Notes: generated by a model from the sequence alone, not told the origin. Shown: positions 3,364 through 6,739, counted from the first letter of the stretch. The stretch: 6,739 nt of DNA from a virus (IMGVR_UViG_2711768034_000001:1-6739), one strand, 5' to 3'. Translations and numbers: made by a program.

Positions 3364-3542
3364 CTTGTATTCCTCGCACGATGTCTTAGCCACCGGATAT
3401 CCCACAGGTGAGCCGTGTAGTTGAAGGTTTTTACGTCAGATTCTTTTGGGATTGGCTTGCGTTTATTTCTGGAGCGTTTCGTTGGAAGGTATTTGCAGTT
3501 TTCGCAGATTATGTCGGTGATACTTCGTCGCTGTCGCCTCAT
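3360..3542 (-). CDS. ninE: NinE
   Basis: The internal Met of the 90-aa track ORF yields the 60-aa [60 protein letters not shown], matching lambda NinE. ATG at 3540..3542 overlaps the methyltransferase stop as ATGA. The track's N-terminal extension overlaps the upstream gene and is unlikely to be translated. Confidence 0.85.
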
Positions 3543-4093
3543 GCCGCCCTCCTGACGCCCTGCCCGATCGCCATCAATGCCGCTTTGGATACGGTAGTAA
3601 ACATCCGTCGAGGACTGATGAACGGTCGCCAAATCAGCAGCATGGAACCTTTGCTGTTTCCCTTCTTCTCCAGCCCTGTCGATGGTTCGATAAAATTAAT
3701 CCGTCCATCAGTGATAATACGAACTTCGTCGACACTCTCCAGAGCCTTGCTGAACCATCCGACTGACATATCCTCTGGCACAAGCATAACTACCGTCTGT
3801 CGCTGTTGTATGCACTGCTCAGCGGCTTTTTCCACCCACGGCCTGATATTGCTGTACGGTAGGTTATTCCAGATTGCACCGTGGCTTATCCACTCAGAAT
3901 TGAGCGCGTCGTCAGCCTCAGTTAGCCAGTGAGCGCACAGAGCATTTTTGTCGCTCGCTGCCGAATCCAGCCAGAATCCAAACTCAATATCCAGTGCATC
4001 AAAAAGCCAAAGCGGCGTTTGCCAGCAGTCCTTGTCGTGTGCTGGCGTATTTGATTTGATAGTCATGCAGCCTTCCCTTTTCGTTGTGACCAT
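3539..4093 (-). CDS. Phage Dam-family DNA N6-adenine methyltransferase (orphan; occupies the lambda ninC/ninD slot)
   Basis: The 184-aa ORF carries the N-terminal [26 protein letters not shown] signature typical of phage Dam-type methyltransferases (Pfam Dam, PF05869) and an NLPY motif resembling the catalytic (D/N)PPY motif. An alternative ATG at 4064..4066 (Met10) overlaps the ninB stop as ATGA and may be the true start, giving 175 aa. Confidence 0.75.
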
Positions 4094-4738: not shown

Positions 4739-4770
4739 AAATAAAAAGGCCTGCGATTACCAGCAGGCCT
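4739..4770 (-). terminator. Intrinsic terminator (tR2-like) between the helicase gene and the nin region
   Basis: 8-bp inverted repeat aggcctgc (4747..4754) and gcaggcct (4763..4770) with an 8-nt loop. On the minus strand the stem is followed directly by TTTTTATTT (plus 4739..4746). It lies 29 nt downstream of the helicase stop and just upstream of the membrane ORF SD. Confidence 0.55.
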
Positions 4771-4798: not shown

Positions 4799-6235
4799 TC
4801 AGAATCCTCCTTTCTTCTTGGACTGCGGTTCCTCGCGTTCACGGCGGCGCATTTCAGCAGACTGTTGGTCTGTGTCATAAATAGCGCCATTTGCCTGAAT
4901 GCAATACACCGTGCCGGTATTGCCATGACGATTGAGGCGAAGGATTAGTTCGGTTTCACCAGGAGGAACGCTGTCATCAAAAGCACCTTCCCGATGGATC
5001 CCAACCCAATAATCGCAATCCTGTTCAATCTGCCCTGTATCTCGTGAGTCACTTGGTAATGGGCGTTTATTGGTTCGGCTTTCCAGTGCGCGGTTAAGCT
5101 GCGTCAGAAGCACAACAACGCAATCAAGCTCTTTGGCAAGGTTCTTCAGTCCTTTGGTGATCATGCCGTAAGCAAGGTCGTTGCGATCGGCCTTCTCAGC
5201 GGTCATTAGTGTCAGGTAATCGACCAGAATCATGCCAACACATCCTTTTTCTCGCTTGATTCGACGGCTTTCGCTGACGATTTGAGCCAGAGATAATCCC
5301 GGCGTGTCGTCGATGTAAAGCATGTCGATTTCACTCAAGCGATTAGCTGTTTCGATCGCCCTGTTGAAGTCACCATCGTAATCACCCTGATAGCCGTCAT
5401 CAGCGTCATTTGTCGCCGGAAGGTAAAAAATATTCGGGTTAACACCTGACTTCTGTCCTACCAGTTTTTCCAGTATCTGGTCACCGGGCATTTCAAGGCT
5501 GAACATCAGAGCGGGCTTTTTCTCATGCACTGCGCAGTTGATTGCCATCTGGCTGTATAGCGTCGTTTTCCCCATCTTAGGGCGAGCGCCAATGACAAAC
5601 AGAGAGCCTTTCACCAGACCTTTCGGTGACAGCATCCTGTCCAGCGATGGGATCCCTGTGCTCATTCCTCGTTGTTCGCCTGACGGGTCAAATCGCTTCT
5701 CAAGGTCGCTAACCCAGTCTTCCATGACCTCACCAAATGAGCGAAGGCCGCGACGCGATCCGGTGTTTGCATGGTCTGTCAGTTGCGTGAAAATCGCCTG
5801 AATAGCTTCGTACTTCTGCGTTGCAGTCATTCCGTTGCGGGAATAGAGCAATTCCGTAGCTTCAGTCATGCGGTTGATGGCGTAGCGTTCCATTGCGGTT
5901 TCACGAACCTGCATTGCATAGGCAACGATGTTTGCTGCGCTTGGCGTGTTCTTTGCGATCTCAGCGATATAAGCAAAACCGCCAACAGACGCCGTTAACG
6001 ATTTGCGCTCCAGTTCATCGAAAAGCGTCAGGCCATCTACTGGCTTTTGCTCCCGGTGCATTCTGGTTATTTCTTCGAAAAGGATTTTGTGTGGTCGGCT
6101 GTAAAATGAATCAGGCTTCAGCATCGCCAGAACTTTCCGGACGCGCTCACTGCTGTCATCATCCAGAAGCAATCCACCAATCACCGCCTGCTCTGCCTCG
6201 ATGCTATTGGGCGGCGCATAAAAATTATCGGTCAT
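4799..6235 (-). CDS. DnaB-family replicative DNA helicase (P22 gene 12-like), replacing lambda P
   Basis: N-terminal DnaB-like segment IEAEQAVIGGLLLD, Walker A GARPKMGKTT, Walker B-like GMILVDYLTLM. I place the start at ATG 6233..6235, 7 nt after the O-like stop and preceded by GAGGGTGA. The track's GTG at 6250 would overlap the upstream gene by 26 nt. Confidence 0.85.
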   Translation of the reverse strand: MTDNFYAPPNSIEAEQAVIGGLLLDDDSSERVRKVLAMLKPDSFYSRPHKILFEEITRMHREQKPVDGLTLFDELERKSLTASVGGFAYIAEIAKNTPSAANIVAYAMQVRETAMERYAINRMTEATELLYSRNGMTATQKYEAIQAIFTQLTDHANTGSRRGLRSFGEVMEDWVSDLEKRFDPSGEQRGMSTGIPSLDRMLSPKGLVKGSLFVIGARPKMGKTTLYSQMAINCAVHEKKPALMFSLEMPGDQILEKLVGQKSGVNPNIFYLPATNDADDGYQGDYDGDFNRAIETANRLSEIDMLYIDDTPGLSLAQIVSESRRIKREKGCVGMILVDYLTLMTAEKADRNDLAYGMITKGLKNLAKELDCVVVLLTQLNRALESRTNKRPLPSDSRDTGQIEQDCDYWVGIHREGAFDDSVPPGETELILRLNRHGNTGTVYCIQANGAIYDTDQQSAEMRRREREEPQSKKKGGF

Positions 6236-6739
6236 CGTGTTCACCCTCACGAACTTTCAGGTAGGTATTATCGTTAAGCAGGAAATCAAATCCCTTTTTG
6301 TGCCAGACGGTTCCGCGTTGATGGTTTGGACGCTCTTCGAACATCCATCGGCAATTTTCGCCTACGTAGCTCAAATAATTTCTCCAGTCCTGCATCGTGA
6401 ACCCATGCCCGTCAAGCTGGCGGGTTATCACTCCGGCTTTGCGCCAGAACGTTCGGATCTGGTTTTTACGCTTGTCATTCAGTGCGCGGATTCTTGGCGC
6501 TTCAGGAAGGATTTCGTGGTAAGCATCGACAACATCCTGACAGCTGACGGGAGGTTTTTTCTTGTCAGACTTTTTGTCTGCTGTGGCACTCTCTAATACG
6601 TCAGTATTAGAGATAATATTATTATATTCTTTATCTGTGGTAATTTGCTGGTAATCTGCTGGTACAGTATTTCTTACAGGCATTGGTATTGCTGACTTTG
6701 ATGTGGTAATTTGCTGGTAATCTGCTGGTACAAAATTTG
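6225..6739 (-). CDS. Replication initiator, O-like (C-terminal portion; 5' end beyond the window), with origin iterons inside the coding sequence
   Basis: The frame of the 6225..6683 ORF stays open upstream to the window edge (…NFVPADYQQITTSKSAIPMPVRNTVPADYQQITTDKEY…). The DNA direct repeats encode a repeated VPADYQQITT peptide, as in lambda O where the ori iterons encode the interdomain linker. Position immediately upstream of the helicase fits. No sequence homology to lambda O was recognised, so the call rests on position and architecture. Confidence 0.55.
   Translation of the reverse strand, partial: NFVPADYQQITTSKSAIPMPVRNTVPADYQQITTDKEYNNIISNTDVLESATADKKSDKKKPPVSCQDVVDAYHEILPEAPRIRALNDKRKNQIRTFWRKAGVITRQLDGHGFTMQDWRNYLSYVGENCRWMFEERPNHQRGTVWHKKGFDFLLNDNTYLKVREGEHDDR
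6636..6732. repeat. Iteron-like direct repeats: two perfect 31-bp copies, each built of ~11-bp sub-repeats, flanking an AT-rich tract; candidate phage replication origin
   Basis: tgtggtaatttgctggtaatctgctggtaca occurs at 6636..6666 and again at 6702..6732. Inside each copy, tgctggtaat(c/t) recurs with ~11-bp spacing, and a degenerate copy ttggtattgctg lies between them. An AT-rich tract (tattagagataatattattatattctttatc, about 6605..6635) is adjacent. The array may continue past 6739. Confidence 0.6.

Follow-up and report, generated by a model that had tools for sequence, protein, structure and literature searches.

A probable replication origin of the HK022/VT2-Sakai type within the linker-coding segment of a lambdoid initiator gene O

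The stretch of viral DNA analysed here, which will be called the window (IMGVR_UViG_2711768034_000001, 6739 bp in full), carries an early-right operon of the lambdoid type that is read leftwards (Table 1). The minus-strand frame of the gene encoding O is open from its stop at 6225 to the window edge, and therefore the repeats described below lie within a gene. The full-length protein comprises 299 aa in relatives, and the full-length homologue belongs to PHROG 345, 'replication initiation O-like' (E=7e-88). Over window positions 6100-6739 the DNA is 98.3% identical to that of HK022, VT2-Sakai, HK620, an Stx1 phage and many others, and the closest complete E. coli genome displays 99.1% identity. 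The first-pass annotation, made from the sequence of the window, had placed the repeats inside an O-like gene, and both the open frame and these homologues bear this out. After the repeat-bearing gene, an HK022-type O, comes the gene of a DnaB-like helicase P of 478-483 aa, whose start overlaps the O stop (an alternative GTG start is located at 6250) and whose homologues in relatives are annotated as P or DnaB-like helicase. Downstream of the helicase gene are found ninB, a Dam-like methylase gene, ninG, a phosphatase gene, Q, two tRNA genes, and the holin and endolysin genes. The two tRNA genes, Thr (TGT) at 1193-1268 and Asn (GTT) at 1274-1348, are located on the minus strand between the genes of the Q antiterminator and the holin, and no toxin gene is present in the Q-to-holin gap. 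An ORF of 119 aa at 6237-6596 (+), antisense to the part encoding the C-terminal domain of O, is listed as 'hypothetical protein' (ORF b66) in AP005153; its match is to PHROG 32009, a family of unknown function, and it probably represents a shadow ORF. Several RefSeq phage records list a 'tail protein' feature beneath the O match, and this feature may be the same antisense ORF.

Table 1. Features of the O-P region, in window coordinates.
Feature	Position	Strand	Remarks
Gene P, phage DnaB-like replicative helicase (HK022 P / P22 gp12 type)	4799..6235	-	Pfam DnaB 1.2e-30, DnaB_C 2.9e-60
Gene O, 3' part (linker and C-terminal domain), HK022-type replication initiator	6225..6739	-	runs off the window edge
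Perfect palindrome/hairpin TCTCTAATAC-gtca-GTATTAGAGA	6590..6613	.	10-bp arms, 4-nt loop
A+T-rich tract, 22 bp, sense AGATAAAGAATATAATAATATTA, A-rich on the sense strand	6614..6635	-	91% A+T
Iteron block 2, adjoins the A+T-rich tract	6636..6666	-	exact 31-bp repeat
Spacer between the blocks, ~35 bp	6667..6701	-	hypervariable, length fixed
Iteron block 1, adjoins the N-domain coding part	6702..6732	-	exact 31-bp repeat

Within the O frame two direct repeats are located at 6636-6672 and 6702-6738, with a start-to-start distance of 66 bp. Their first 31 nt, TGTGGTAATTTGCTGGTAATCTGCTGGTACA on the plus strand, are identical, and the two repeats account for all the repeated 20-mers in the window. 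Each block is built of three units phased at 11 bp, reading xTTACCAGCAx on the sense (minus) strand: TGTACCAGCAG (6732-6722), ATTACCAGCAA (6721-6711) and ATTACCAC.. (6710-6700) in block 1, and the units at 6666-6656, 6655-6645 and 6644-6634 in block 2. The units are direct and lack dyad symmetry, and no inverted repeat was found inside the blocks. Autocorrelation at lag 11 and at lag 66 exceeded that of all 2000 shuffles, and 9 occurrences of the unit TTACCAGCA, with at most one mismatch, were counted in the window where 1.33 would be expected, four of the nine falling in the two blocks. The spacer carries degenerate unit-like sequences, AAAGTCAGCAA and TACCAATGC, and encodes a variable peptide, SKSAIPMPVRNT. 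On the other side of block 2, the A+T-rich core contains only 2 G/C in its 22 nt, and the surrounding 6600-6639, with 22.5% GC, is the lowest point of the profiled stretch 5800-6739. The tract is conserved among close relatives, and it may be regarded as a putative DNA-unwinding element; in enterobacterial homologues the 34 nt upstream of the hairpin are 61-82% A+T. Accordingly, the 31-bp direct repeats 66 bp apart, the 11-bp sub-repeats and the adjoining AT-rich stretch claimed by the first-pass annotation were all recovered, the repeats being exact. A lone exact copy of TTACCAGCA is found at 4757-4765 (+), about 35 bp downstream of the helicase stop and on the opposite strand, and could be due to chance. 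The sequence TTATCTGTGG at 6631-6640 was considered as a DnaA box and rejected by eye as a poor match to TTATCCACA.

The same element has been recorded before. In the VT2-Sakai record AP000422 two misc_binding features, 'ori iteron 1' and 'ori iteron 2', are given with the O protein as bound moiety; they lie at 3604-3633 and 3538-3567 of locus L003 and correspond to window positions 6703-6732 and 6637-6666. The blocks match these features base-for-base and share their location in the O gene, which agrees with the candidate origin (iterons and A+T element) proposed for this gene in the first reading. VT2-Sakai, HK620, HK022 and the Stx1 phage have the same element, and the few substitutions that set the window apart fall mainly in the spacer. 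HK620 (AF335538) carries a two-part rep_origin at the homologous site, phage L (MW013503) a 'putative origin of replication', and the rep_origin of Sf6 (NC_005344) is described as 'putative; repeat region reminiscent of the phage lambda origin; similar to phage HK620'. Likewise, gene 18 of phage L contains six 11-bp repeats that have been discussed as the likely origin of that phage and contrasted with the four ~20-bp iterons of lambda and P22, in a study that reports 25% identity between the gp18 proteins of L and P22 (PMC8022706, 2021). The origin is thus known already: its annotation goes back to about 1999-2004 and its discussion to 2021, and since the element stands in public records the present result is a correct rediscovery and not a discovery. 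No experimental test of an HK022-type origin (ori-plasmid assay, footprint or initiation mapping) was found in the searchable literature, which was also searched with the repeat sequence. A biochemical study of Stx phage O proteins deals with the lambda type only, namely those of lambda, P27 and 933W (PMC7466680), and hence the public annotations of HK022-type origins are all made by analogy. These records mark only the iterons, and neither the A+T tract nor the hairpin, save for one minus-strand 'terminator' label considered below; neither the covariation of the hairpin nor the recognition code described below appears in the annotations or literature found.

The first reading had further assumed that the array probably continues past the window edge, and this was not the case. 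The first residues encoded in the window, NF-VPADYQQ, correspond to the junction found in homologues after the N-domain motif KYDDYQS (KYDDYQSNF-VPADYQQ), so that block 1 is the first block. When the iterons were counted upstream, as had been suggested, in the full VT2-Sakai and HK022 genes, only two blocks were found, with the N-domain coding part directly upstream. Two is the usual number of blocks: each of the 46 phage records with iterons of the HK022 type has exactly two, judged by complete cover of a block-spacer-block probe, as do about 220 of the 230 matching E. coli records, the remaining ~10 showing 69% coverage, as expected of a one-block allele. A second 'place' per record in the phage search proved to be only an off-register self-match of the repeat. 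A dispersed repetitive element, which the first reading had named as an outcome that would speak against an origin, was ruled out, as an E. coli genome has the sequence in 1-3 places, each of them within a replication-protein gene. Nevertheless, block number does vary, in exact steps of 66 bp (22 aa), between one, two and three. Among the IMG/VR contigs, L100 has three blocks (+66 bp) and L102 a single one, and O proteins of 277 aa that lack exactly one 22-residue repeat are frequent in a large protein collection (P0041-P0098), one of them, P0079, being encoded on 288 contigs. Such one-block alleles are frequent in bacterial assemblies and absent from the 46 sequenced phages. As they are common, either the need for two blocks may not be absolute or the prophages that carry one may have a defective origin. 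All three P0079 loci inspected (L147-L149) harbour a transposase gene of the IS3 family or IS605 type, inserted in the early region or between early genes, and at one of the three one-block loci an 821-aa helicase ORF was found; the IS insertions are compatible with origin-defective, decaying prophages, without being proof of it.

The stepwise change in block number might also be read as the trace of a neutral or recombinational process, either a 66-bp duplication or a conserved boundary for module exchange among lambdoid phages, with no role in initiation. Such a reading also fits the occurrence of the N-domain/iteron module with C-domains of different kinds, joined to it close to the A+T tract or the hairpin. 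We consider it very unlikely, for the duplication is old and shared by the whole family, and two blocks are present in every one of the 46 phages just mentioned. Among 104 distinct linkers, taken from IMG/VR contigs as well as from phages and prophages and showing 43-100% amino-acid identity, the best direct repeat lies at exactly 66 bp in 95. The layout of 3+3 units in 11-bp register is kept across the linkers, and the unit sequence is lineage-specific, both blocks of one genome being alike: TTACCA in HK022, TGTCCA in phage L, Sf6 and phages of Cronobacter and Klebsiella, GTGCCA in a Klebsiella ST101 phage, Erwinia phage 59, Yersinia and Pantoea, and AATCCA in Ewingella and Biostraticola. Phage L and Sf6 therefore share the 2x3 layout of 11-bp units with HK022, but not the unit itself. 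Since the spacer has diverged freely, and the blocks are near-identical within a genome and different between lineages, selection or concerted evolution tied to the O protein is called for. Two loci, L035 (Silvania) and L036 (Leclercia), have TTACCA-type units in an irregular arrangement. In a distant homologue from Prevotella sp. oral taxon 376 (L063), a run of 12-bp repeats encoding TNEQ about 10 times occupies the same linker position instead of the 2x3 layout of 11-bp units.

In order to tell constraint on the DNA from constraint on the encoded peptide, variability was compared along the gene in 49 unique HK022-type sequences, a column being called variable when at least three sequences carried a minority state. 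Of 20 iteron codons 1 was variable at its third position, whereas elsewhere in the gene 143 of 224 were (Fisher p=1.9e-7, a value that is indicative only, because the sequences are related), and over all positions the count was 2/60 in the iterons against 251/673 in the rest of the gene, block 2 having no variable column at this threshold. In the spacer, 21 of 36 columns varied against the same 251/673 (p=0.014, likewise indicative only). These numbers bear on the possibility that the repeat serves the protein, with the duplicated peptide VPADYQQITT x2 of the O linker acting in oligomerisation or helicase contact and the DNA repeat being its shadow. The blocks do encode an identical decapeptide, and a two-fold peptide repeat is kept in homologues. 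However, the three units of a block stand in codon phases 1, 0 and 2, and therefore the 11-bp periodicity cannot be a peptide repeat; synonymous positions are frozen; and the peptide changes from lineage to lineage (VPADYQQITT, CPTDVQRMSN, VPTECQQSAN, NPKEIQGKSN) while the phasing of the DNA and the CCA core are kept. We thus regard a peptide function as the source of the repeat as extremely unlikely, and the comparison of the sequences supports a constraint on the blocks that acts on DNA and not on protein.

The palindrome next to the A+T tract proved to be under a constraint of another kind. Its single-strand DNA fold energy lies 4.7-4.95 standard deviations below that of shuffled sequences (z = -4.7 to -4.95), and an unbiased scan of loci L014-L144 (stem of at least 6, loop of 3-6) detected a perfect palindrome of 9-10 bp, closed by the loop T(A/G)A(C/A) and placed immediately behind the A+T tract, in every one of 88 distinct enterobacterial sequences with two blocks. 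Their stems comprise at least 15 different sequences, for instance TCTCTAATAC, TCTCTTCTAC, ACTCTCTTAC, ACTTACTACC, ACTCAATATC and ACTCATTAGA. In an alignment of 24 rows, 10 of the 11 hairpin pairs show double-sided changes, with a covariation score of 0.77 against 0.18 when shuffled and at most 0.18 when slid; as the rows were pre-selected for a 9-bp stem, the '% paired' value is circular and only the counts of pair types are informative. The peptide encoded at the hairpin varies freely (SNTDVLES, SSTDVEES, LLPNGSKY, SISKDIEC), and hence selection acts on pairing, in DNA or in RNA. Rfam has no family at this site, its only matches in the window being the two tRNAs.

A selected hairpin followed by a T-rich flank may suggest a further reading, in which the palindrome is an intrinsic terminator antisense to O, the repeats are binding sites of O or another protein with a non-origin role, such as autoregulation of O and P or exclusion/incompatibility, and the true origin lies elsewhere. 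In a simple terminator scan 6590-6613 is indeed terminator-like on the plus strand (antisense to O), and the phage L record has a minus-strand 'terminator' at 798-840 of locus L006 that, by coordinate arithmetic, spans the palindrome of that phage. Moreover, lambda iterons cloned on a plasmid have been reported to mediate a replication-inhibition phenotype (PMC3349717). Nevertheless, only 3 of the 10 pairs of the stem are G-C and no antisense promoter-like site was found, and for these reasons the terminator is ranked low; the order of iterons, A-rich tract and palindrome copies the experimentally defined origin of lambda, and no other iteron-like array was seen in the 6.7-kb window. A non-origin role therefore seems to us very improbable. 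A second terminator-like hairpin antisense to O, CTGACGGGAGGTTTTTTCTTGTCAG followed by a T-run, is located at 6544-6568 (+) in the coding sequence of the lysine-rich linker.

The first-pass annotation had likened the locus to the arrangement of lambda and P22, which holds for position and element order and fails for the architecture of the repeats. As in lambda, the origin-like element lies inside the initiator gene, in the linker between the parts coding for the N- and C-domains, and the initiator follows the same modular logic; as in both lambda and P22, repeats are followed by an A-rich tract and a palindrome, which in lambda has 12-bp arms and a 4-nt loop and in P22 is shorter. In contrast to the two blocks of three direct 11-bp units found here, lambda and P22 have four iterons of ~20 bp (18-20 bp in lambda) with internal dyad symmetry. 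The two arrays (loci L145, 535-621, and L146, 340-426) have identical start-to-start spacings of 20, 24 and 23 bp and unrelated iteron sequences. The unit differs in sequence from the lambda iterons, in keeping with the distinct specificity that the first reading had claimed. Furthermore, the A+T tract measures ~22 bp against ~40 bp in lambda, and the helicase partner is a DnaB-type helicase and not a loader of the lambda P type. P22 is closer in this last respect, having its origin in the initiator gene 18 and a DnaB-like helicase gene (gp12) next to it, and its half-site TTTACCAG resembles the HK022 unit ATTACCAG, although its four dyad-symmetric 20-bp iterons keep the spacing of lambda. In the alignment of the initiator with lambda O and P22 gp18 that the first reading had recommended, hhalign detected no similarity to lambda O in the N-domain and a match in the C-domain only, a match that says nothing about the N-domain because it is driven by the Erwinia phage 59 row of the alignment, and similarity to P22 gp18 was marginal (probability 3.6%). 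Unlike lambda O, the HK022-type O does not match Pfam Phage_rep_O (PF04492) even at E<=1, nor did it match NCBIfam families or, by sequence, any relative among solved structures.

The N-domain is distantly related to the DnaD-like and replisome organiser families. The HK022-type O reaches only E=0.21 with Phage_rep_org_N (PF09681; 12 bits against a cutoff of 23.3), but its distant N-domain homologues P0204 and P0226 carry this domain, which SPP1-like replisome organisers share, and the N-domain matches PHROG families of 'DnaD-like helicase loader'. Given this distant relationship, gp38 (G38P) and oriL of the Bacillus phage SPP1 come closest, among systems studied by experiment, to the repeat type found here. 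In SPP1, oriL consists of direct repeats and an A+T-rich unwinding element inside gene 38, and a DnaB-family phage helicase is present (PMC6316719), so that, compared by arrangement, the in-gene origin, direct repeats, A+T element and DnaB-family helicase are common to both; SPP1 differs in having a separate helicase loader, gp39, and a second origin, oriR.

An AlphaFold2 model of the N-domain, built on a 62-sequence alignment (mean pLDDT 84, core >86), displays a winged-helix fold, with a helix-turn-helix formed by H81-88 and H92-104 and a beta-hairpin wing formed by E108-112 and E117-121, and it ends at about residue 121-125, just before the repeats. The top PDB matches in Foldseek are winged-helix DNA binders (MarR/ZitR, CAP, TubR, SmtB), none of them at E<=1e-3. 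Residues 96-97 (HK022-type numbering; encoded outside the window, at about 3735-3740 of L003) lie in the second helix of the predicted helix-turn-helix and vary with the unit. Among 71 distinct N-domains, 67 of which fall in the three main unit classes, Q96 and Y97 accompany TTACCA units in 20 and 21 of 22, K/R and S/A accompany TGTCCA units in 22/22, and K-Y accompanies GTGCCA units in 23/23, counts drawn from related sequences and phylogenetically uncorrected. The association recurs across backbones, L016 and L017 combining an HK022-like backbone with KS and TGTCCA, and L035 having QY and TTACCA-type units on a GTGCCA-like backbone, as would be expected if the unit were read by the second helix. 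The C-domain is modular: in L011, L053-L056 and L060 the N-domain, iterons, A+T tract and hairpin are joined to a lambda-O-like C-domain, with the mosaic junction just after the hairpin, and in L011 (Erwinia phage 59) the next gene encodes a lambda-P-like loader and not a DnaB-like helicase, so that, in the loci compared, the helicase partner is seen to follow the type of the C-domain.

Based on these comparisons, we hypothesize that the element is very probably the replication origin of an HK022/VT2-Sakai-type lambdoid module, placed where its own initiator gene encodes the linker. In such an origin the winged-helix N-terminal domain of O would bind the 11-bp units, and the three head-to-tail units of a block, one per helical turn, would present themselves on one face of the DNA. 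Monomers of O might then occupy the six in-phase units, the two trimers cooperating six turns apart as an O-DNA complex, and stress from this complex may open the adjoining 22-bp tract, which is 91% A+T. The hairpin beyond it could form in the unwound DNA or mark the boundary of the bubble. The C-terminal domain of O would recruit or load the phage DnaB-type helicase P, without a loader of the lambda P type, and rightward early transcription would cross the origin because the origin lies inside O, as in lambda. The anatomy of the element, the conservation of its phasing and spacing, the constraint at the level of DNA and the covariation of the units with the putative recognition helix are documented by the analysis, and any specific step of this mechanism is put forward with much less confidence than the identification of the origin. 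A stronger proposal would be that the HK022-type origin is mechanistically distinct among lambdoid phages, with O monomers bound head-to-tail as two in-phase trimers, a two-residue code (QY, KS and KY for TTACCA, TGTCCA and GTGCCA, respectively) and a structure-selected hairpin essential for helicase loading or priming; we offer it tentatively, and at present rather doubt it.

As the origin itself is already on record, the residual interest is modest and resides in the covariation of the hairpin, the correlation of two residues with specificity and the polymorphism in block number. [quoted passage not shown] The comparative results yield hypotheses that can be tested cheaply, concerning the bases of the binding unit, the two residues of specificity, the role of the hairpin, and whether or not the one-block alleles are origin-defective.
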